64,000 bases of DNA from Nitrospirota bacterium (GCA_029261165.1 JAJDBV010000061.1:1731-65730); one strand, 5' to 3'; positions 4,542-63,730 are shown, counted from the stretch's first letter. Numbers and translations: made by a program. The notes: a model not told the origin generated them from the sequence alone.

Positions 4542-5525
4542 GTGGGGGGAATGGATCTTGTCTGGTCCACTTACAAAGAGTCGTTAGATGAAGTTGAAGA
4601 ACAGATCCTCAAGGGGCTTGACTCGAAGATTGACCTCGTCAACGATATCGCCACTTATATCCTCAATAGCGGCGGAAAACGAATTCGCCCCCTTTTTCTC
4701 ATGATCTCTTCAGAACTCACTGGCAATACTGTCAATAAAGAACATCTTCTCCTTGGCGCGGGACTGATTGAATACATCCATACGGCAACACTCCTGCACG
4801 ACGATGTTCTGGACAATGCGGACGTTCGACGCGGGAATGCAACTGCACGCGTGAAGTGGGGGAACCAACCCAGCATTCTCGTCGGTGATTACCTCTACAC
4901 CCTTGCTGTTTGTCAAGCTGTTACAATAGAAAACCATGAAGTGAACCACCTCCTCTCCAGTACCTGCCGTAGCATGACGGAAGGAGAAACCCTCCAGTTC
5001 TACCACAACAAAGATTTTAATCTCGGAGAAGAGACTTATTTCAAGATCGTTGAATATAAAACAGCGTCCCTTATTTCAGCAAGTTGCCGCCTCGGAGCAA
5101 TCATCGCGAAGGGTTCGGAAGAAACAAAAGGAGCCCTCTCGTCCTATGGACGGCACATCGGTATCGCATTTCAGGTCGCCGATGATACGCTCGACTACAC
5201 TGCGGATGGAAGACGTCTGGGGAAATCTCTTGGTGAAGACCTCAAGGGCGGAAAAATCACCCTCCCCCTGATCCACTTACTCCAACACTGTAAGGAAGAG
5301 GAACGAAAAGAGGTCGAACGCCTGATTGGAGAACCCGGCCTTCAGGAAGAAGACCTGAAACAGGTGACTGCGCTCATGAGGAATTATGGATCAATCAATT
5401 ATGCGATCAAAAAGGCGCAAGACTTTGTCGACCTGGCAAAAGAAGACCTCTCCTGCTTTAAAGATTCAAGCCATCGTCAATCTCTCATCACGATGGCAGA
5501 TTATGTCGTTGAAAGGGATCACTGA
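4542..5525 (+). CDS. ispB: Polyprenyl diphosphate synthase (IspB/HepT-like)
   Basis: GGKRIRP, first Asp-rich motif HDDVLD..RRG, KTASL, second motif FQVADDTLD. Confidence 0.88.
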   Translation: MGGMDLVWSTYKESLDEVEEQILKGLDSKIDLVNDIATYILNSGGKRIRPLFLMISSELTGNTVNKEHLLLGAGLIEYIHTATLLHDDVLDNADVRRGNATARVKWGNQPSILVGDYLYTLAVCQAVTIENHEVNHLLSSTCRSMTEGETLQFYHNKDFNLGEETYFKIVEYKTASLISASCRLGAIIAKGSEETKGALSSYGRHIGIAFQVADDTLDYTADGRRLGKSLGEDLKGGKITLPLIHLLQHCKEEERKEVERLIGEPGLQEEDLKQVTALMRNYGSINYAIKKAQDFVDLAKEDLSCFKDSSHRQSLITMADYVVERDH

Positions 5526-33970: not shown

Positions 33971-34056
33971 GGAGGGGTGGCCGAGTGGCCTATGGCGGCG
34001 GTCTTGAAAACCGTTACCCGAAAGGGTCGTGGGTTCGAATCCTACCCCCTCCGCCA
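33971..34056 (+). tRNA. tRNA-Ser (anticodon TGA)
   Basis: GGAGGGG acceptor stem, anticodon loop CTTGAAA, long variable arm, GTTCGAATC, encoded CCA. Confidence 0.95.
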
Positions 34057-34135
34057 TAAGCCGTATCGAAAGATCAGGGTGATCAGAAAAATATTTTGAA
34101 GTTTTCTATAAAAGGAAATGTCCTAGCATAACCAA

Positions 34136-34229
34136 GGAGAGGTGGCCGAGCGGCTTAAGGCAGCGGTTTGCTAAACCGCCGTAGGGGCTTCAACCTCTAC
34201 CCAGGGTTCAAATCCCTGCCTCTCCGCCA
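34136..34229 (+). tRNA. tRNA-Ser (anticodon GCT)
   Basis: GGAGAGG acceptor stem, anticodon loop TTGCTAA, long variable arm, GTTCAAATC, encoded CCA. Confidence 0.95.
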
Positions 34230-34256
34230 AGTTTAGAACCATATGAAGAGGAGACT

Positions 34257-34796
34257 ATGAAACAAACAGCAACCGTCGTTCTTTTGTTCACCTTAATCTT
34301 TCTTGCTTCATGTAATAAAAATGAAGGAAGAGACGAACTTCCAGAGACCCTTCCACCGCCATTGTCCGTACAAGACTCAGATCGTCCAACTCCGCCGCCT
34401 CTCCGCGGAGGGGCACATACGGACATACCGGACCTGAGCGGGGCAAAAGTCATTGTTCCGGACATGGTCAAGGGAAAATGGAAAAGTATTAAACTGATGC
34501 TGGAGAATAAAAAGACCCATGAGATCACAGAACATGCAGTGAACCTGGGAGAAATATGGCATGTTCCCGGTTCCAACATTCAAGTAAAAGTCGGCATCTT
34601 TCTGCCTGACCTGATTATCCAAGGAACGGTGTTTACCTCAGTTTCTAATGAGTTGAAAAACCCCGCGATCCATGTGGTCATTACAGAAAATGGAGCTGAA
34701 CTTTTCGAGGGCTGGCTCTTCTCACTCTTCCCGACCATGCATCCATTTCAACATGACAATTTTGCCATTACCCTGAAAGATGTCCTCGCCTCATAA
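34257..34796 (+). CDS. Lipoprotein, DUF2155-like
   Basis: Lipobox LASC, Pro-rich linker, C-terminal NPA..V...E.G..LF.GWLF...P..HPF.H motif. Confidence 0.7.
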   Translation: MKQTATVVLLFTLIFLASCNKNEGRDELPETLPPPLSVQDSDRPTPPPLRGGAHTDIPDLSGAKVIVPDMVKGKWKSIKLMLENKKTHEITEHAVNLGEIWHVPGSNIQVKVGIFLPDLIIQGTVFTSVSNELKNPAIHVVITENGAELFEGWLFSLFPTMHPFQHDNFAITLKDVLAS

Positions 34797-34804
34797 ACCA
34801 GGTT

Positions 34805-34881
34805 GCGCCCATAGCTCAGTTGGATAGAGCACTTGACTACGAATCAAGGGGTCGGGAGTTCGAATCTCTCTGGGCGCACCA
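34805..34881 (+). tRNA. tRNA-Arg (anticodon ACG)
   Basis: GCGCCCA acceptor stem, anticodon loop CTACGAA, GTTCGAATC, encoded CCA. Confidence 0.96.
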
Positions 34882-51295: not shown

Positions 51296-52417
51296 TCATT
51301 TGGGTTCAGCAAGAAAAACGCAGCCCTTTCCATTTAACTTCGCGCGATACATTGCTTCATCCGCTTGTCTGATCAGAAGATGACGAATATTGTCATTCGA
51401 TGACCGCATGTCAATATGATCCCTGATAGAAGACAGTCCAATACTGCATGTCAACCTTCCCTCTATCATAACAACCTGCGCTTTGGGATGAATCGGCACG
51501 GATGTAAAAGTAAATTTTCGAATCGCGTTGCAAATGGATTCTGCAACATCTACCACTTGATTCAGGCTCGCCCGGGAGAAGATAATGACAAATTCATCAC
51601 CCCCATATCGGGCAATCGTCACTCCCTTATGTGAAACCACTTCCCTAAGAATATTGGCGACATCCTGAAGGACATGGCTTCCGGTCAAATGTCCGAACTC
51701 ATCATTGATCTCCTTAAAATGATCCATATCCATGAAGAGTAAGACGAGGTCGTCCTTACGCCGTTTTGCCAAGCGTACCTCTTCGTCCAGTTTCAGATGA
51801 AAATACCGATCATTGTAGAGACCTGTAAGGCCGTCTCGTTTTGACATTTCGCTATGTTTTCGAGCGTAGAGCACATTCTCGATTAAAGTCGATGTATATC
51901 CCGCAAAGATCTCCAAAAGTTTTAATTCTTTTTTGGAGTAATACCCTTTATCTTTTCTATTAATTAACTCAATGACACCGCAAACCGACTGTTCAACAAT
52001 AATCGGCGCACATATAATCGATCGTGTTCGAAACCGACTTAACTGATCAATCTTGGGGGAAAGATAAGTCTCCCTTTTAGAAGTTTTGCTCAGGAAGGGC
52101 TTTCCATACAAGTAGCTCGCGCCGACAATTCCGGCATTGACCGGAAGTTGAATCCCAACCAGTTTAGAGGAACCTGCACCGAAACAAGCAACAAAAACAA
52201 GTTCGTGGCATTCTGAAGAAAGACTTCTCTTTACTGAATCCTCCAAAAGAATCGATCCCGCTTCCGACGGAACAAATTGATTTGCCTTTGTAAGGATCTC
52301 CTTCAACATCAGATCCAGGCCGGGACCGCCTTGGTCCAATTCGCTCCCCTGGCGATCATAGCTCAGCAATAGATTAAGATGCCGGTTATCAAGAAGATGT
52401 AGCCTCATAATGAACAA
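51296..52417 (-). CDS. GAF-GGDEF dinucleotide cyclase with the Hypr (cGAMP synthase) signature
   Basis: GAF (T.SIICAPI..GVIELIN), DMDHFKEINDEFGHLTGS and an intact RYGGDEF. Confidence 0.88.
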   Translation of the reverse strand: MFIMRLHLLDNRHLNLLLSYDRQGSELDQGGPGLDLMLKEILTKANQFVPSEAGSILLEDSVKRSLSSECHELVFVACFGAGSSKLVGIQLPVNAGIVGASYLYGKPFLSKTSKRETYLSPKIDQLSRFRTRSIICAPIIVEQSVCGVIELINRKDKGYYSKKELKLLEIFAGYTSTLIENVLYARKHSEMSKRDGLTGLYNDRYFHLKLDEEVRLAKRRKDDLVLLFMDMDHFKEINDEFGHLTGSHVLQDVANILREVVSHKGVTIARYGGDEFVIIFSRASLNQVVDVAESICNAIRKFTFTSVPIHPKAQVVMIEGRLTCSIGLSSIRDHIDMRSSNDNIRHLLIRQADEAMYRAKLNGKGCVFLAEPK

Positions 52418-57412: not shown

Positions 57413-57441
57413 ATTATAACAATCGCCTTTTTAAAAGACAA
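57413..57441 (-). promoter_or_regulatory. Sigma70 promoter for phoH-ybeY-ftsY
   Basis: TTGTCT-17 nt-TATAAT with an extended -10 TG. Confidence 0.65.
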
Positions 57442-57579: not shown

Positions 57580-58752
57580 TTACAAAACCTCGTGCCAGGC
57601 ATTTAACGACAAGGGCGCATTATTTACGGCATTGCTCAAGGCGATACAACTATATTGGATGGACGAATTCCCATTTGACTTGATCCTGAAGTTCTCCCCT
57701 GTCGGATCTTCAGAAGTATTCGCCAGGAGCACCGCTCCTGTGATCGAGTCATTGCCGTTTGATTTAAAACGGTCAAACGACGTATTTCCAGTGATAATAA
57801 TTAAACCCGTCCAGTTAAAACCACCGTTGAATTCAACTCTACCTTTTTTGGTGGTCTCGCTATTGATAATTAAGATCCCATACCCATCGGCATCCCCATT
57901 AAATTTAATCCTTGCGTCTTCTCCTGTCATGCTAATGACGGTCACCTCCGGATTCGCTTGCGTTCCCCAGCTCACATCAGGATTATTCACCTTCTGATCA
58001 TCCACTAAAATCGTCCGGTCTGCATTCGCTGCAAGTGTGTTGGCAATGGTCTGAACCTCGGTCGGGTTCATATCCTCAGGTCGAAGCTGTATGCTCGGGT
58101 CCATTCCAATCCCGGTGATGGTCGCACCCCCTTTCACCCGAATCTCGTCGTAGGCGCTCACCGTGTCAACGCCCACCCCGGCCTTGTTCTGGGCACAATC
58201 GCTTCCGGCCACGGGTGTCTCGCCCGCAGGAAGGTCTCCATTGATCGTGGTATTCCCCTGAAACCTGATCCGACTAAAACCACCAGAAACGCCCAGCGAG
58301 GCATTCACCGGAACCATTGTGGAGACATTTCTCACCTCGGCCTCGATTTTCCTTGTCTCTCCGGAGGGATATTTTCCTGTGGCGGTAACATAGACGGTGT
58401 TGTCCGGGGCCAGATTGCCCTTGATGTTCGTTTTGCTTACTTCAATGCTATAGCCTAAGCCCTGAACGCCATTGAAATCTGTTACGACGAGCCAGGGCTG
58501 GGGGGCAGCCGTGACAACATCAAAGTTTTGTCCTCTCAGGGCCCGCATGGCATGCTGGATACCGGCGTCTGCCGCATAGAGGGTCTCCGATGCCACGCGT
58601 TCGTTGCCTCCCAGCTTCACCTCTGTAGAGGAAAGCATGATGCCGGCCAAACCAAGCGCGGTCACCATCACCAATATCAGCAACGAAACCACCAGGGCCA
58701 TGCCTTTCTGGTTACAATGAAGTTTATGTAGATTGATCTCCTTAATTTTCAT
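57580..58752 (-). CDS. pilX: PilX-type minor pilin, copy 2
   Basis: QKG|MALVVSLLIL prepilin site without Glu5, A.YAADAGI PilX N-terminal motif, beta-helix-like C-terminus. SD AGGAGG before ATG 58752. Confidence 0.8.
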   Translation of the reverse strand: MKIKEINLHKLHCNQKGMALVVSLLILVMVTALGLAGIMLSSTEVKLGGNERVASETLYAADAGIQHAMRALRGQNFDVVTAAPQPWLVVTDFNGVQGLGYSIEVSKTNIKGNLAPDNTVYVTATGKYPSGETRKIEAEVRNVSTMVPVNASLGVSGGFSRIRFQGNTTINGDLPAGETPVAGSDCAQNKAGVGVDTVSAYDEIRVKGGATITGIGMDPSIQLRPEDMNPTEVQTIANTLAANADRTILVDDQKVNNPDVSWGTQANPEVTVISMTGEDARIKFNGDADGYGILIINSETTKKGRVEFNGGFNWTGLIIITGNTSFDRFKSNGNDSITGAVLLANTSEDPTGENFRIKSNGNSSIQYSCIALSNAVNNAPLSLNAWHEVL

Positions 58753-58822
58753 AGTCAACCCTCCTATATCTTGCGAGGGACCTTTTCAACGGATAACATC
58801 TACGATGAGACGCTTCCGCACC

Positions 58823-58857
58823 AAATAAAAAGGCCCATTTCTACTAAGAAATGGGCC
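58823..58857 (-). terminator. Intrinsic terminator of the riboswitch expression platform
   Basis: GGCCCATTTC-TTAGTA-GAAATGGGCC followed by TTTTTATTT. Confidence 0.85.
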
Positions 58858-58892
58858 ACCATTGTTATCATAAACCACCCTCATCGGATGGT

Positions 58893-58991
58893 TCTCCAGG
58901 CGGCCCAACCGGCATGCCTTCTAAACACATAAAGGCGAAACCTTGTGACTTTGCGTCCCGGTCTTTCGACCGGTTTGCCTTTTTCTAGAAA
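58893..58991 (-). ncRNA. GEMM-I (c-di-GMP-I class) riboswitch aptamer
   Basis: Minus strand AAGGCAAACCGGTC-GAAA-GACCGGGACGCAAAG core with a GNRA loop, P3 containing GCCTT/AAGGC, 3' GGGCCGCC, and P1 TTTCTAG/CTGGAGA. Confidence 0.88.
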
Positions 58992-59048
58992 GATCTCAGA
59001 AAATTACGCTAAATAAATCCTTTCTTATGTAATAAACTGATGAATCAA

Positions 59049-60248
59049 TTACAATATCTGGTGCCAGGCGTTAAGCGACAAGGGCGCCTTGTTCATGGCA
59101 TTGGTCAAGGCGGTACAGCTATATTGGATGGTGGTGGCCGCCTCTACCCTGAACCTCAAATCCTCCGCCGAAGCATCGGGTTCTGTATTGGCAATAATCA
59201 CTCCCCCGGTAATGCTGGTACCGGCAGTGCCATCAAACTCGATTCGGGTCGAGCCGGTAATGATAATAATACCATCCCATGAGAATGAATCTCCGAATTC
59301 AATCCTTCCTTTCCTGTCAATATTGCTGTTCAGGATCAGGATACCGGCTCCGGTCACCGTTCCATTGAAGCGAACCCTTGAGTCATCCCCTTCCATATTG
59401 AAGACCGTCACCTGCGGATTGGCGACAGTCCCGTAGGTCGTATTCGTGTTGATCTCCGCTGTCGTGTCATTTACCGCGATGGTCCGGTCTGCATTTGTTG
59501 CAAGATCGCTTGAAAGAGCCTGAATTGCCGCCGCAGACATGTCCTGCGGCCGCAATTGAACACTCGGCGTCAAACCCATCCCGGTGATGCTTTGACCGCC
59601 GCCATCGAGTCTGATCTCATCGTAGGCACTCACCGTGTCTACGGCCACGGCTGCCTTATTTTGCGCACAGTCGCTCCCCGCGACAGGGACCTCGCCGCCG
59701 GAAAGGTCTCCATTGACGGTAACATTATCTTCGAACCTAATCTCGCTGTCGTTTCCCACAACACCCAGAGTGGAAGTGACCGGCACCATTGTGGAGAGAT
59801 TTCTCACCTCGGCCTCAATCCTCTTGAGTCCCCCACCGCTTGGATAAGTCGCCGTCGCCGTGATAAAGACCGTGTTGGCCGGGGCAATATCGCCATTGGT
59901 GTTTATTTTTTTAACATCGACAAAATAGTTTAACCCTGGGGTTCCATTGAAATTCGTTACATTAAGCCAAGGCTGGGGGGAAGCCGTGACAATATCAAAA
60001 TCTTGTCCTCTCAAGGCCCGAAGGGCATGCTGTATGCCGGCGTCTGCTGCATAGAGGGTCTCCGCCCCCACGCGTTCGTTGCCTCCCAGCTTCACCTCTG
60101 TAGAAGAGGCCATGATCCCGGCCAAACCAAGCGCAGTAATCATCACCAATATCAATAGCGAGACCACCAGGGCCACGCCTCTCTGATTAAGAGGGCGTCG
60201 GAGGATGTTCTGCCCAACGATCTCTCTATTTTTCTCGATGTCTTTCAT
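59049..60248 (-). CDS. pilX: PilX-type minor pilin, copy 1
   Basis: QRG|VALVVSLLIL and YAADAGIQHA; close paralog of 57580-58752. Confidence 0.8.
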   Translation of the reverse strand: MKDIEKNREIVGQNILRRPLNQRGVALVVSLLILVMITALGLAGIMASSTEVKLGGNERVGAETLYAADAGIQHALRALRGQDFDIVTASPQPWLNVTNFNGTPGLNYFVDVKKINTNGDIAPANTVFITATATYPSGGGLKRIEAEVRNLSTMVPVTSTLGVVGNDSEIRFEDNVTVNGDLSGGEVPVAGSDCAQNKAAVAVDTVSAYDEIRLDGGGQSITGMGLTPSVQLRPQDMSAAAIQALSSDLATNADRTIAVNDTTAEINTNTTYGTVANPQVTVFNMEGDDSRVRFNGTVTGAGILILNSNIDRKGRIEFGDSFSWDGIIIITGSTRIEFDGTAGTSITGGVIIANTEPDASAEDLRFRVEAATTIQYSCTALTNAMNKAPLSLNAWHQIL

Positions 60249-60283: not shown

Positions 60284-63200
60284 TTAAGGATTGTAGATCC
60301 TGGAAATTGTTGTTTTATTGCCGCACCGGTCCGTCGCAGTAACCTTGAGGGTATGGTTCAGACCTCCGCTGGTCGATTGATACGATTCCGAGTAGACGTC
60401 CGGTGAAATCTCTGTCATCGTCGTCGGCGGTATCCCGATAAACCCGGTCACCTCAAGGCTGACATCCTGAAGGCCGACGACAGAGGAAGAGGCAGTCACT
60501 TCAACATCGACATTGCCGGAAACCGGCCCGGCGGCCGGTGTTGGAGGAGAATTAAACGAAAGTGACGGGCCGACGGTGTCACACTGAGCATAAGTGTAGG
60601 CGCCGGTTTCGGGCAGGATATCAAAGTTGCCCTCTGTATCAATCGTCTCCAGATAATACCAAACCCTCGATGCCGTACTCATAGCGGGGATGCTTCCTGA
60701 CCATGACCCCTTAGAGGCAATCACCGTTCCTAAGTTCAAGGGAATAGGATTGGGATAACTGACGCCGCCCTCCGTTGATGAGGGACGTGTCGGCGGTGTC
60801 GTACTGGTGAATGCATCAATCGCATAATGAATCTTCACCGAGTTGACCGAATAAGACGGGTTCGCGGTCGCATCGTCGACAGCAGTCGAGAGACCGACCA
60901 GCTTCCCGGGTGCAACATAGGAGGTGATCGTCGGGACGGTACTCGGGAGTGTGCTGGCCGCAGGTTGATCCTGAAAAGTGGTACTCTTCACAAACTGCGG
61001 ACCCTGTGAAATTCTCTGCGATGCCAGGGTGGCAGAACAGACAAAAGAAGCATCTAGGGTATCCCGGGTCATGAATCCTCCGGACACCGTCACCCCGCGC
61101 ATATCAATACTCGCCGGAATTGTATTCACATTACTGGTAAAGGTCAGTCTTAACGTGGCCGTCCCGCCATTTGCAGAAACTGTGGGGACAACACTAAAGA
61201 CCACGACCGTACCGCTCCCTGTTTCAACCGGTGGAACAGTCGTTAGATTGGTGTCTTCAAAAAGAACCAGGGCCGGACTTGCGATTTCAACCTTTTTCAA
61301 GAAGGCCAAGGTATTTCCCCATTTCAGGAGCATATGCGTGATGTCCAGATTCTTGTCGGGGTGTGTGTTCTTGATTCCCAAATCCACGATATGATGGGTG
61401 TCATCCGGGGTTGAGATATTCGTCGTCGTCACCACGGCATCATCAAACTCAATTCCGCCGGTCCTGATCGTTAAAGGGATCGTGTTTTCTGCCGTATATT
61501 GCTCGCCGTCAACGGCCCTGACTCTAAAATCGTAATCCCCTGAACAGAACTTCCCCGTGTCAATGTCGACGCTCGTCAGCGGATAAAATGGGAAATGATA
61601 ATAATTGTCACTACTTCTAGGGGCGAGGTCTGAGGCCCCACCGCTTCCATAGGCAACGTCCGCCGGCGTGTTGGTCGGGTCGCCTGCTTTGTTGATGAAA
61701 AAGTCGACCTTGGCCCCTGTGGAAACGGTCACATAAGTGGGAGGGTCACTGTAATCAAAGCCCTGCCGATCAAAATTACTCGAATCGGGAGTGCAATCAA
61801 GAGGATCGACCACCCAGGTAATATAACGGCTGCCCGGGACAAAATCCGGGTCGCTCGCGGCATTCGGATCGGTTCCAATGACTGTTCTTCCGGAGAGAAA
61901 GTCAATTGGCGTTCCTGTCGGTGTAAGTCCTGGATAAATTTTATTTCCCCCCCGAACGATGCCGGTGCCCGTCGTCCATTGAATCCTGGGGGCACAGGCC
62001 GCAGTCGAGATACTGCTGATCGTGCTGTCTGCGGCATCGCCGCAATCATCGGGAGGGGCCGCATCAATCGCAGAAACCTTGATGTCGTAAACGGTCGTCC
62101 CCATCAAACCAATCAGGATGGTCTGTCCGGTAGCGGGTAAAGTTCTCGAGGTCAGATCAATTGTCTCATACGTGGTCCAGAGAGTGTCTGTGTCCTTCTT
62201 GTAATAGACCTTTAAAAGGGCCGGGGTACTGTGGGTATTCACATCAGGCGCGGGCACCAACCAATCGACGATGAGCGTCGAAGTGTCGTCTCCGGCGACC
62301 AGGCTGGTGATCGTCGGTGCCTTCGGTTTCATCGCATTATCGGGCGGGGTCACCTTTAAAGCCACCGATTCCGCACTGACGACGCCACAGGTGTTGACCG
62401 CCTTGATTTTATAATAATAAACCGTACAAGCGACGGCGGTGTTATCAACAAAAGAAGCGACCGTGACCGTCGTTTCATTCGCAAGGCGATTTCCGGTTCC
62501 GGAGGTATCATCCGGGACAAAATCTGGCGTTGTTCCCCGATAAACCCGGTACCCTTTTAAGCTTTTTTCAGCGGTATTGTCGACGGTTAGCGTCACCGGA
62601 TTCCAGTAGAGGGTGACCTTATTCTTGCCCATCTCTGCCAGAGGGGCTTGCACCTGATCCGGCGCAGCCGGTGCCGGCCCCGTTTCAGGGATGCCGGAGA
62701 CAGAGGTTTTGTTCGTATCCCATAAATCAGTATTGGGATTGCCGGGAAAACAGGTGCTGGAATTTCCAAAGGCGTCATAGGCCTCGACAATGACATTATA
62801 GGATACACCACTTTTCAGGCCGGTCAGGATCGCAGTAGAAGGGCAGCTCCCGGTACAGGGAACATCGAGTGTTCCGTTATCGGCATTGGTCCCCGTCGGT
62901 GGCGTTGGGGGAATGGCGTCTATTGCCCCCGTACTGTAATAGATCCTGAAACCGGCGATATCACCATCCGGGTTGCTGAAGGTCCAGTTGACCGTCAATT
63001 GCCCGCACTCCCCGGCAACAGCAGTCACCGTCGTTGTCGTCGGGCAGGAAGGAGGCGTGGTATCCCCAAGCGAGGCGCCAAAATTTCTCAGGACAACGTC
63101 CGAGCTCACCGTTCGCACACGATATCCGTTATTGTCAGCGTAATCAGGATCGTGACGGGCGCTCCGCCCCGTCACCTTGAGCGTTACCCTGCGGATATCG

Positions 63201-63730
63201 GATGCCTTCGTTTGAACCGCAGTATTGACATTCCGCGGGAAATTCAGGTCGGTTGCATCACCAGGATTCTGACCATAAAACTTAAACTCGGCCTCAGTAA
63301 TATTGGCTGCAAATCTTTCCGCCCCCTCACCATTATAATTTCTCATCAACCAAGGGTTTGTACATGGCGTTTCAAAACAACTAATGGAATAGATCACCGT
63401 TTCAGCGACGTTATTATTGTCAAAATCTCCTTGAATGGTCACCGAATTTCCAGGATTATCTTTATCCAGAGTAATACTCGGTAGCGCGCTCGATCCAAGT
63501 ACACCCACGATGGGAGATCCAAAACGGTAGCCCGACGCCCGAAGTTCACGCGTGATCTGGTCGCTGGAAACCCTGACATTCTGCTGCATCTCTGCGATCT
63601 GTTCCTGAACCACGGAATTTTTATTAAAGTTAATATAAGTGTTGTAGGAACCCTTGAGAATGACTCCGACAATGACCATGACGATCAACACCTCAATCAG
63701 CGAAAAACCTTTTCTGTTTAGACAGATCAT
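60284..63730 (-). CDS. Giant PilW-like minor pilin with fibronectin type III and Ig-like domains
   Basis: RKG|FSLIEVL prepilin motif, MQQNVR...I.RELR.SGY PilW motif, three FN3-like W...Y.VY..Y repeats. Located between pilV-like and pilX genes. Confidence 0.78.
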   Translation of the reverse strand: MICLNRKGFSLIEVLIVMVIVGVILKGSYNTYINFNKNSVVQEQIAEMQQNVRVSSDQITRELRASGYRFGSPIVGVLGSSALPSITLDKDNPGNSVTIQGDFDNNNVAETVIYSISCFETPCTNPWLMRNYNGEGAERFAANITEAEFKFYGQNPGDATDLNFPRNVNTAVQTKASDIRRVTLKVTGRSARHDPDYADNNGYRVRTVSSDVVLRNFGASLGDTTPPSCPTTTTVTAVAGECGQLTVNWTFSNPDGDIAGFRIYYSTGAIDAIPPTPPTGTNADNGTLDVPCTGSCPSTAILTGLKSGVSYNVIVEAYDAFGNSSTCFPGNPNTDLWDTNKTSVSGIPETGPAPAAPDQVQAPLAEMGKNKVTLYWNPVTLTVDNTAEKSLKGYRVYRGTTPDFVPDDTSGTGNRLANETTVTVASFVDNTAVACTVYYYKIKAVNTCGVVSAESVALKVTPPDNAMKPKAPTITSLVAGDDTSTLIVDWLVPAPDVNTHSTPALLKVYYKKDTDTLWTTYETIDLTSRTLPATGQTILIGLMGTTVYDIKVSAIDAAPPDDCGDAADSTISSISTAACAPRIQWTTGTGIVRGGNKIYPGLTPTGTPIDFLSGRTVIGTDPNAASDPDFVPGSRYITWVVDPLDCTPDSSNFDRQGFDYSDPPTYVTVSTGAKVDFFINKAGDPTNTPADVAYGSGGASDLAPRSSDNYYHFPFYPLTSVDIDTGKFCSGDYDFRVRAVDGEQYTAENTIPLTIRTGGIEFDDAVVTTTNISTPDDTHHIVDLGIKNTHPDKNLDITHMLLKWGNTLAFLKKVEIASPALVLFEDTNLTTVPPVETGSGTVVVFSVVPTVSANGGTATLRLTFTSNVNTIPASIDMRGVTVSGGFMTRDTLDASFVCSATLASQRISQGPQFVKSTTFQDQPAASTLPSTVPTITSYVAPGKLVGLSTAVDDATANPSYSVNSVKIHYAIDAFTSTTPPTRPSSTEGGVSYPNPIPLNLGTVIASKGSWSGSIPAMSTASRVWYYLETIDTEGNFDILPETGAYTYAQCDTVGPSLSFNSPPTPAAGPVSGNVDVEVTASSSVVGLQDVSLEVTGFIGIPPTTMTEISPDVYSESYQSTSGGLNHTLKVTATDRCGNKTTISRIYNP

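Follow-up and report, generated by a model that had tools for sequence, protein, structure and literature searches.

Control of pilus and flagellar genes by c-di-GMP riboswitches is already established, as are the aptamer class considered here and OFF logic within that class (PMC1950547, PMC6366702, PMC9262584). Cd1 (Cdi-1-3), which lies before the flgB operon of Clostridioides difficile, has the same aptamer class as the element described here, is a transcriptional OFF switch (the behavior predicted for this element), has the same strand order (aptamer, switching strand, terminator) with a long stretch between aptamer and terminator, and targets a surface motility organelle (PMC9262584, PMC6366702). 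It differs in being placed in the 5′ UTR of an operon of 23 kb and in having been reported without a P1 helix; the element described here can form P1, targets only one minor-pilin gene, and follows another gene of the same cluster. Cdi-2-4, which lies before pilA1 of C. difficile, also acts on type IV pilus genes through termination and read-through, but it has a class II aptamer, switches ON, and targets the major pilin, with read-through into assembly genes (PMC6366702). The pilM riboswitch of Geobacter metallireducens (GEMM-Ib) shares the GEMM-I fold, a type IV pilus gene as the target, and transcriptional control; however, its ligand is cGAMP, read through an A at the G20 position, and its response is ON (PMC9262584). 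The early list of GEMM-associated genes includes pilM, pilO, pilQ, and pulF, with no pilX or minor pilin (PMC1950547). Our literature searches returned no paper on a c-di-GMP riboswitch and pilX, no paper linking a GEMM riboswitch to a minor pilin, and none on a c-di-GMP riboswitch-pilX link in Nitrospir*. Operon-internal riboswitches exist; a search with phrases such as "intercistronic riboswitch," judged by titles and abstracts, found no operon-internal riboswitch as a precedent.

We analyzed a window of 64,000 nucleotides (the whole stretch of DNA under study) from a Nitrospirota genome, referred to here as G000, in which a GEMM-I element lies between two genes for PilX-type minor pilins, pilX1 and pilX2. 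The original prediction was that this element is an intra-operon riboswitch that turns off only the second of the two genes. We consider it probable that the element is a class I c-di-GMP OFF riboswitch that serves as a conditional operon end between pilX1 and pilX2, a proposal that joins observed elements (aptamer identity, competing helices with their conservation, and gene order) to inferred ones (the ligand, the direction of the response, and cotranscription with pilX1).

The genes concerned are all on the minus strand. They begin with pilD, a PAS histidine kinase, a sigma-54-type response regulator, a GspH-like pilin, and two N_methyl pilins; a 468-aa protein with a weak PilX-like N terminus, two N_methyl pilins, and a 1148-aa N_methyl/FN3 protein follow; and the order continues with pilX1, the switch, pilX2, phoH, ybeY, ftsY, uvrB, and a GAF-GGDEF gene. 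The cluster to which pilX1 and pilX2 belong includes pilD, the pilS/pilR-like pair, five N_methyl pilin genes, and the 1148-aa N_methyl/FN3 gene. The features of the locus are as follows.

60284-63730, minus strand: pilin-like gene, whose 1148-aa product has an N-terminal prepilin methylation motif and FN3 (N_methyl E, 9.2e-07; fn3 E, 2.2e-10)
59049-60248, minus strand: pilX1, encoding a 399-aa PilX_N minor pilin (PF14341 E, 2.7e-10)
58992-59048, minus strand: AT-rich 57-nt spacer from the pilX1 stop codon to the aptamer (promoter and terminator scans)
58895-58989, minus strand: c-di-GMP-I (GEMM-I) aptamer (RF01051, 63.4 bits; RF03167, 63.3 bits)
58979, minus strand: G20-equivalent base, G (alignment to the family consensus and sequence)
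58952, minus strand: A47-equivalent base, A (alignment to the family consensus and sequence)
58900, minus strand: C92-equivalent base, C (alignment to the family consensus and sequence)
58899-58907, minus strand: aptamer 3′ segment TGGGCCGCC, the 5′ half of the antiterminator (sequence, folding, and alignments)
58873-58893, minus strand: spacer hairpin of 8 pairs, AACCATCC (58893-58886) with GGGTGGTT (58880-58873) (sequence and folding)
58852-58860, minus strand: switching strand GGTGGCCCA, the 3′ half of the antiterminator (sequence, folding, and alignments)
58823-58857, minus strand: intrinsic terminator, an 11-bp stem (58857-58832) with a 4-nt loop, followed by TTTTTATTT (58831-58823) (terminator scan)
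57580-58765, minus strand: Shine-Dalgarno sequence AGGAGG (58765-58760) and pilX2 (ATG at 58752, 390 aa, PilX_N; PF14341 E, 1.5e-10)
57413-57441, minus strand: promoter-like site of phoH-ybeY, TTGTCT-17-TATAAT with a TG (promoter scan)

The two genes flanking the switch matched PilX_N (PF14341) with 40.5 and 41.3 bits against a cut-off of 25.5 and are true PilX_N paralogues, as their original naming implied. The coding region of pilX2 is 57580-58752 (minus strand). The phoH promoter-like site lies downstream of the pilX2 stop codon and is not part of the switch. Since phoH appears to have its own promoter-like site 3′ of pilX2, pilX2 is taken as the last pilin gene, with the phoH site marking the putative end of the pilin transcription unit. 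The 1148-aa protein encoded directly before pilX1 is unusually large and has FN3/Ig-like domains; in a second genome of the genus, G001, a 1188-aa counterpart precedes the in-cluster pilX. Farther along, after phoH, ybeY, ftsY, and uvrB and 5 kb downstream of pilX2, lies the GAF-GGDEF diguanylate-cyclase gene (window positions 51296-52417, minus strand).

We scanned the minus strand for terminators and promoters. Between the beginning of the cluster and pilX2, the only terminator-like site with more than 7 pairs was the switch's own; the scan found no terminator between pilX1 and the aptamer and no strong terminator within or after the gene at 60284-63730. Because no terminator precedes the aptamer, transcripts of pilX1 must enter the switch. 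No promoter passed the standard scan, whose sigma-70-like consensus is calibrated within the phylum only on two sister leaders, in either of two intervals, from the pilX1 stop codon to the aptamer and from the terminator to pilX2. The original prediction depended on there being no pilX2 promoter downstream of the terminator. The only candidate there, TTGAAA-15-TATAGG (58789-58763), was rejected: its spacer is 15 nt long, it lacks the T at position 6, it runs into the Shine-Dalgarno sequence, and it is not retained in a third genome of the genus, G002. A sigma-54 promoter, considered in view of the PilR-like activator in the cluster, was also rejected; the TGGCAC near the end of pilX1 has the wrong spacing. 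The sigma-54 pattern TGGCAC-N5-TTGC, with at most one mismatch, occurred twice in the window, against 2.79 expected, with no occurrence near the cluster and none in locus L007. Within the 3′ part of the 1148-aa gene, ~370 nt before pilX1, we noted a promoter-like sequence, TTGATA-16-TATCCT with a TG (60615-60642, minus strand). Its −10 hexamer is that of the pilX promoter in G002, and it could drive a pilX1-switch-pilX2 transcript; promoter-like sites in the surrounding region are at chance level (5 found, 3.1 expected).

The arrangement is different in the sister genomes. In both G001 and G002, the upstream neighbors of the switch-pilX unit are divergent (a 131-aa gene and an M1-type aminopeptidase), and a strong sigma-70-like promoter precedes the aptamer by ~68 nt (G001, TTGACA-16-TACTAT; G002, TTGACA-16-TATCCT; each matching 10 of 12 positions and having an upstream TG). 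Given these divergent neighbors and the unit's own promoter, the module was ancestrally a normal 5′ leader. Judged by this gene arrangement, operon-internal action is not a property of the switch-pilX module itself. Homology between G000 and the sister leaders begins only at the aptamer, with none to the promoter region of G001 or G002; hence, the ancestral promoter was not carried along.

Outside the window, contig C13 of G000 (positions 194-373; L034) bears a deletion scar of the ancestral stand-alone unit. All that remains there is ~21 nt of leader and the initial ~25 nt of a GEMM-I aptamer, joined directly to the final 42 codons of pilX. The position is syntenic with the intact G001 unit, as its neighbors are orthologues of the two genes flanking that unit (for the 131-aa protein and the M1 aminopeptidase), and its promoter region is shortened from ~154 to 39 nt. 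Our reading is that G000 lost its stand-alone unit and that the surviving copy is the one located 57 nt behind pilX1, without the ancestral promoter. A pilX remnant 5′ of the G001 switch, hinted at by an alignment, was rejected after tblastn found none upstream of that switch at an E value of ≤1.

It is unlikely, although far from negligible, that the element works as an ordinary 5′-leader riboswitch whose promoter, weak or of an unconventional kind, lies in the spacer or in the last part of pilX1, with the terminator also ending the upstream operon. The stand-alone ancestry of the unit, with its divergent neighbors and own promoter in G001 and G002, is consistent with such an arrangement, as is the AT-rich composition of the spacer between pilX1 and the aptamer. 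A laxer scan found a weak candidate, TTGTCG-17-GATATT (59081-59053), within the end of pilX1; it ends ~62 nt before the aptamer, a distance comparable to the 68 nt in G001. However, this candidate matches only 8 of 12 positions and falls short of the sister promoters, with their 10 of 12 and TG, and there is no homology to the ancestral promoter. Moreover, even with such a promoter, transcripts of pilX1 would still enter the switch, as no terminator precedes it. Read-through from pilX1 into the switch is the simplest reading, and we think that cotranscription is probably the main route. The original interpretation was thus upheld in part, and its claim that the switch is intra-operon is plausible: neither a terminator nor a promoter comparable to those of the sister units follows pilX1, but the sister units themselves stand alone with their own promoter.

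We next consider the aptamer and its likely ligand. Infernal matched the element to RF01051 (c-di-GMP-I) with 63.4 bits against a cut-off of 35 (E, 4.9e-12; window positions 58989-58896, minus strand), a full-length match covering model positions 1 to 87 of 87, and thereby confirmed the predicted c-di-GMP-I aptamer. RF03167 (c-di-GMP-I-GGC) matched with 63.3 bits against a cut-off of 59 (E, 1.3e-12; 58988-58895, minus strand). A scan of the whole window with Rfam at the gathering threshold gave four matches, namely, three tRNAs and the RF03167 match; the tRNA genes lie at 33971-34878 (plus strand), and two of the three have long variable arms. In the whole of G000 there were six RF01051 matches at an E value of ≤0.001, five of them above the cut-off. 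The first hairpin of the aptamer is capped by a GAAA tetraloop and has a stem of 2+6 bp, and an AAA linker joins the two hairpins; a pair of hairpins with an AAA linker, the first capped by a GNRA tetraloop, is the hallmark of GEMM-I (PMC1950547). The limits first proposed for the aptamer, 58991-58893, are slightly wider than those from Infernal (58989-58895) and fit a P1 helix of 7 bp that is possible within them.

In the Vc2 aptamer, one guanine of c-di-GMP is recognized by G20 and the other pairs with C92; in cGAMP switches, an A takes the place of G20 (the G20A change), and wild-type Vc2 binds cGAMP at only ~10 µM, compared with the picomolar range for c-di-GMP (PMC6140456). Alignment and sequence both agree with the original prediction of a G at the G20-equivalent position, 58979, and a GEMM-Ib (3′3′-cGAMP) identity was rejected because this base is not A. 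We take A47 to be a further ligand-contact base of GEMM-I aptamers. Presumably, the "GGC" in the name of RF03167 refers to bases 20, 47, and 92, with the middle letter a G that replaces A47. In the position after GACGC, the RF03167 consensus has G (GACGCGAA), whereas the aptamer here has A (GACGCAAA), like the RF01051 consensus. The RF03167 model and this aptamer do resemble each other in having no consensus receptor motif, but the score is barely above the cut-off (63.3 versus 59) and nearly equal to that for RF01051. The variant label arises from clan competition in cmscan. We rejected the GGC-variant identity, since position 47 is A and the label derives solely from that competition between E values. 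The main text of PMC5737381 names c-di-GMP-I a single time and gives no definition of the GGC variant. With G at 58979, A at 58952, and C at 58900, the element is therefore filed as a canonical class I c-di-GMP aptamer by its contact bases, and as neither the GGC variant nor GEMM-Ib; we infer that c-di-GMP is the ligand.

The tetraloop-receptor region is atypical, as had been noted originally: the 5′ strand is UUUCG and the 3′ strand is CAUG, compared with CUAAg and uAuG in the RF01051 consensus. The orthologous leaders of G001 and G002 have receptor strands CUUCA and UAUG, and a (U/C)UUC 5′ strand with an AUGC 3′ strand occurs in all eight related leaders aligned. Because all eight carry it, the departure from the consensus is typical of the lineage and not a defect of the G000 copy. 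In GEMM-I aptamers, a receptor in the second hairpin usually, although not obligatorily, accompanies a GAAA loop. A likely receptor is present in only about half of GEMM RNAs, and novel receptors have been suspected (Weinberg et al. 2007, PMC1950547). We regard it as quite improbable that the aptamer senses another cyclic dinucleotide, such as 3′3′-cGAMP, or several of them, and not c-di-GMP alone. The RF03167 label from clan competition, the nonconsensus receptor strand, and the control of Geobacter pilus genes by cGAMP-sensing GEMM-Ib switches (PMC9262584) would agree with such a ligand, but the G20-equivalent base is G and not the A of cGAMP switches (PMC6140456), position 47 is the A of the RF01051 consensus and not the G of RF03167, and a GAF-GGDEF cyclase gene lies 5 kb away.

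The sequence downstream of the aptamer contains two helices that compete for the same bases. Segment 58907-58899, which comprises the 3′ strand of the second hairpin, the C92-equivalent base, and the first base of P1, is complementary to 58860-58852; the resulting antiterminator has 9 pairs, one of them G-U. Six bases, 58857-58852, are common to the antiterminator and the 5′ arm of the terminator, so that the two helices are mutually exclusive. The spacer hairpin is nested within the antiterminator in G000 only. It is absent in G001 and G002, where the antiterminator helix is instead longer, extending into the 3′ strand of P1. From the end of the U-tract to the pilX2 ATG (58752) there are 70 nt. 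The spacer hairpin and the 9-bp antiterminator overlapping the terminator 5′ arm were thus found where they had been predicted; the predicted terminator, with its U-tract ~70 nt before pilX2, was also found, but its stem has 11 pairs and not 10.

We folded the sequence from 58995 to 58815. Its stability was higher than expected by chance (z = −4.46), with none of 200 shuffled sequences folding as well. The unconstrained minimum free energy (MFE) structure is the antiterminator form, in which the spacer hairpin is nested and the terminator is cut to a 6-bp A/U stem. In forced folds of transcripts ending at the U-tract, the antiterminator was favored by 0.6 kcal/mol in G000, 1.9 kcal/mol in G001, and 3.6 kcal/mol in G002. 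For G000, a few extra 3′ bases are sufficient to make the terminator form the MFE structure, and the two states are nearly isoenergetic. Since the modeled antiterminator is more stable without ligand in all three orthologues, an OFF response is predicted, in agreement with the original proposal. In ON designs of GEMM RNAs, the terminator commonly overlaps the 3′ strand of the second hairpin (PMC1950547). The terminator described here has no overlap with the aptamer 3′ strand, and a separate switching strand is present.

In the mechanism that we propose, at low c-di-GMP levels 58907-58899 would pair with 58860-58852, blocking the terminator and allowing RNA polymerase to continue into pilX2. 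At high levels, the ligand would lock the aptamer and hold 58907-58899, including the C92-equivalent base, thus freeing the terminator arm; the 11-bp terminator would then form, and transcripts would end near 58825. Hence, pilX1 would be made at any c-di-GMP level and pilX2 only when c-di-GMP is low.

To place the switch among its relatives, we searched with PilX2 as the query over 41 genomes (relatives, with G000 included) at an E value of ≤0.001. Matches were found in 19 of the 41, with close full-length relatives in the own genus only. All three genomes of the genus have the switch before a pilX gene (G000; G001, contig C30; G002, contig C189); contig C189 of G002 ends 41 codons into the gene, which has a PilX-type N terminus. 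Across aptamer and terminator, the three orthologous leaders had 97.2% of alignment cells paired and four compensatory pairs, one in each of four helices. One of these is in the terminator stem, and the terminators of G001 and G002 are orthologous. Seven of eight antiterminator pairs are held in all three leaders. All three have A-C as the outermost pair of the second hairpin.

We also aligned a set of eight leaders, made up of the three orthologues and five hand-picked paralogous leaders (L001, L042, L046, L050, and L051). In this set, 96.4% of cells across aptamer and terminator were paired, with 10 compensatory pairs, a result reached by none of 500 shuffles. The 7-bp core of the antiterminator was paired in 56 of 56 cells, compared with 32 to 50% when its partners were slid. 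Changes in the antiterminator were one-sided only, with no two-sided compensatory change in either the three- or the eight-leader alignment. As the rows were chosen by us and represent kin that are not independent, these counts describe a conserved design and are not a statistical proof. The predicted platform of competing helices is thus kept in all three genomes of the genus and in the five paralogous leaders. The paralogous leaders resemble the switch in having a nearly identical aptamer and receptor-like internal loop and near-identical antiterminator and terminator sequences, but they precede a large protein without a Pfam family and not pilX. One of them, L001 (contig C28 of G000, 4836-4933), lies before a gene for such a protein of >418 aa; the same pairing of GEMM-I with a large Pfam-less protein recurs in other genera of the family.

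That the element is a decaying copy that does not switch, or that it switches ON, with the terminator merely ending the pilin operon and pilX2 silent or otherwise expressed, is very improbable: the other G000 copy has already decayed to a scar, an A-C pair stands at the base of the second hairpin, and the G000 folds are nearly isoenergetic, but the aptamer match is full length at 63 bits, every helix is preserved and shows compensatory changes when compared with the orthologues, pilX2 is an intact open reading frame with a strong Shine-Dalgarno sequence and the slowest-evolving paralogue (branch of 0.15 versus 0.48 for PilX1), and the terminator has a separate switching strand and no aptamer 3′-strand overlap of the kind seen in ON designs (PMC1950547).

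We determined how far the association of the switch with pilX extends. None of 30 proteins encoded downstream of the best GEMM-I loci of the order and G000 matched PilX_N in a Pfam scan; this set took the first long open reading frame per locus, omitting the known pilX loci L002 and L054 as well as L058 and L068, which have no or only a short reading frame. Sixteen of the 30 had no Pfam match. Conversely, no GEMM-I aptamer was found at 11 genome loci with distant PilX genes or at 18 independent metagenome loci with such genes. For the metagenome, 19 of 25 loci were scanned: L082 and L083 were omitted as repeats of the G001 paralogues L038 and L039, and L094, L098, L103, and L104 were omitted because of their short length or a match lying at the edge of the locus. 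The single metagenome hit, L081, shares its identity values with the G001 locus and was not counted as an independent switch-pilX case. We concluded that the switch-pilX association is narrow, being seen only in the three genomes of the genus.

Other GEMM-I loci came to light in these searches. Two in G000, C41:18655-18752 (L003) and C54:3836-3933 (L004), have nearly identical aptamers, each followed by a terminator. Their downstream genes are short with near-identical N termini, a pattern that recalls Cd1-flgB; the L004 gene matches Flg_bbr_C, the flagellar rod C-terminal domain (E, 5.3e-05), and the L003 gene has no Pfam match. The six genomes of another genus of the order, g7 (G017, G026, G028, G030, G034, and G036), have 10 to 14 GEMM-I matches each, several of them in tandem pairs 80 to 180 nt apart; at the loci scanned in this genus, the aptamers precede FN3-domain proteins.

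PilX1 and PilX2 are 62% identical overall and group together in a maximum-likelihood tree with support of 97/98. A second pair unites the switch-controlled G001 protein with another paralogue from that genome (support, 91/93), and the G001 PilX encoded in the cluster falls outside both pairs. In each genome the switch-controlled copy has the shorter branch (0.15 for PilX2 versus 0.48 for PilX1 in G000; 0.20 versus 0.44 for the paralogue without a switch in G001). Identity between PilX1 and PilX2 is a mosaic, at 72 to 90% in alignment windows 20 to 100 and 76 to 88% in windows 200 to 240. In the C-terminal half it is 46 to 55%, compared with 62 to 79% between PilX2 and its G001 orthologue; the C-terminal half of PilX2 is orthologous to that of the switch-controlled G001 pilX. 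This pattern suggests that the N-terminal assembly part has been homogenized between the tandem copies, i.e., by gene conversion, with the C-terminal halves remaining divergent. Given a near-identical assembly part and divergent C-terminal halves, a change in tip composition is a reasonable guess at function. The closer homologues of PilX2 (P0003, P0005, P0006, P0008, and P0009) are 57 to 65% identical to it, and the source names of homologous proteins are Nitrospira sp. and Nitrospiria metagenome-assembled genomes. A search with the PilX profile found no relative in the PDB at an E value of ≤1.

Our tentative account of the locus, which we hold with rather less confidence than the OFF switch itself, is that an operon captured a riboswitch unit that had lost its own promoter: the switch-pilX module, ancestrally on its own, gained a copy at the end of the minor-pilin cluster, and the original was lost by deletion. 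The copy may now form an operon boundary set by c-di-GMP that decides whether a second PilX joins the pilus-priming complex, tuning the make-up of the tip rather than the presence of the pilus.

The points of interest, as far as the genomes compared here reveal them, are the unusual and apparently recently acquired operon-internal placement of the switch and the scar at its old locus. c-di-GMP riboswitches are known to switch whole flagellar or pilus operons on or off. Gating of one of two paralogous minor pilins, if true, would be a finer control, acting on the composition of the pilus-priming or tip complex. The genus also offers a before-and-after comparison, in that the sister genomes keep a promoter-bearing stand-alone unit and G000 has a promoter-less copy within the cluster together with the scar. 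If read-through from pilX1 indeed occurs, the locus shows a route by which a 5′-leader riboswitch can become an operon-internal conditional terminator.
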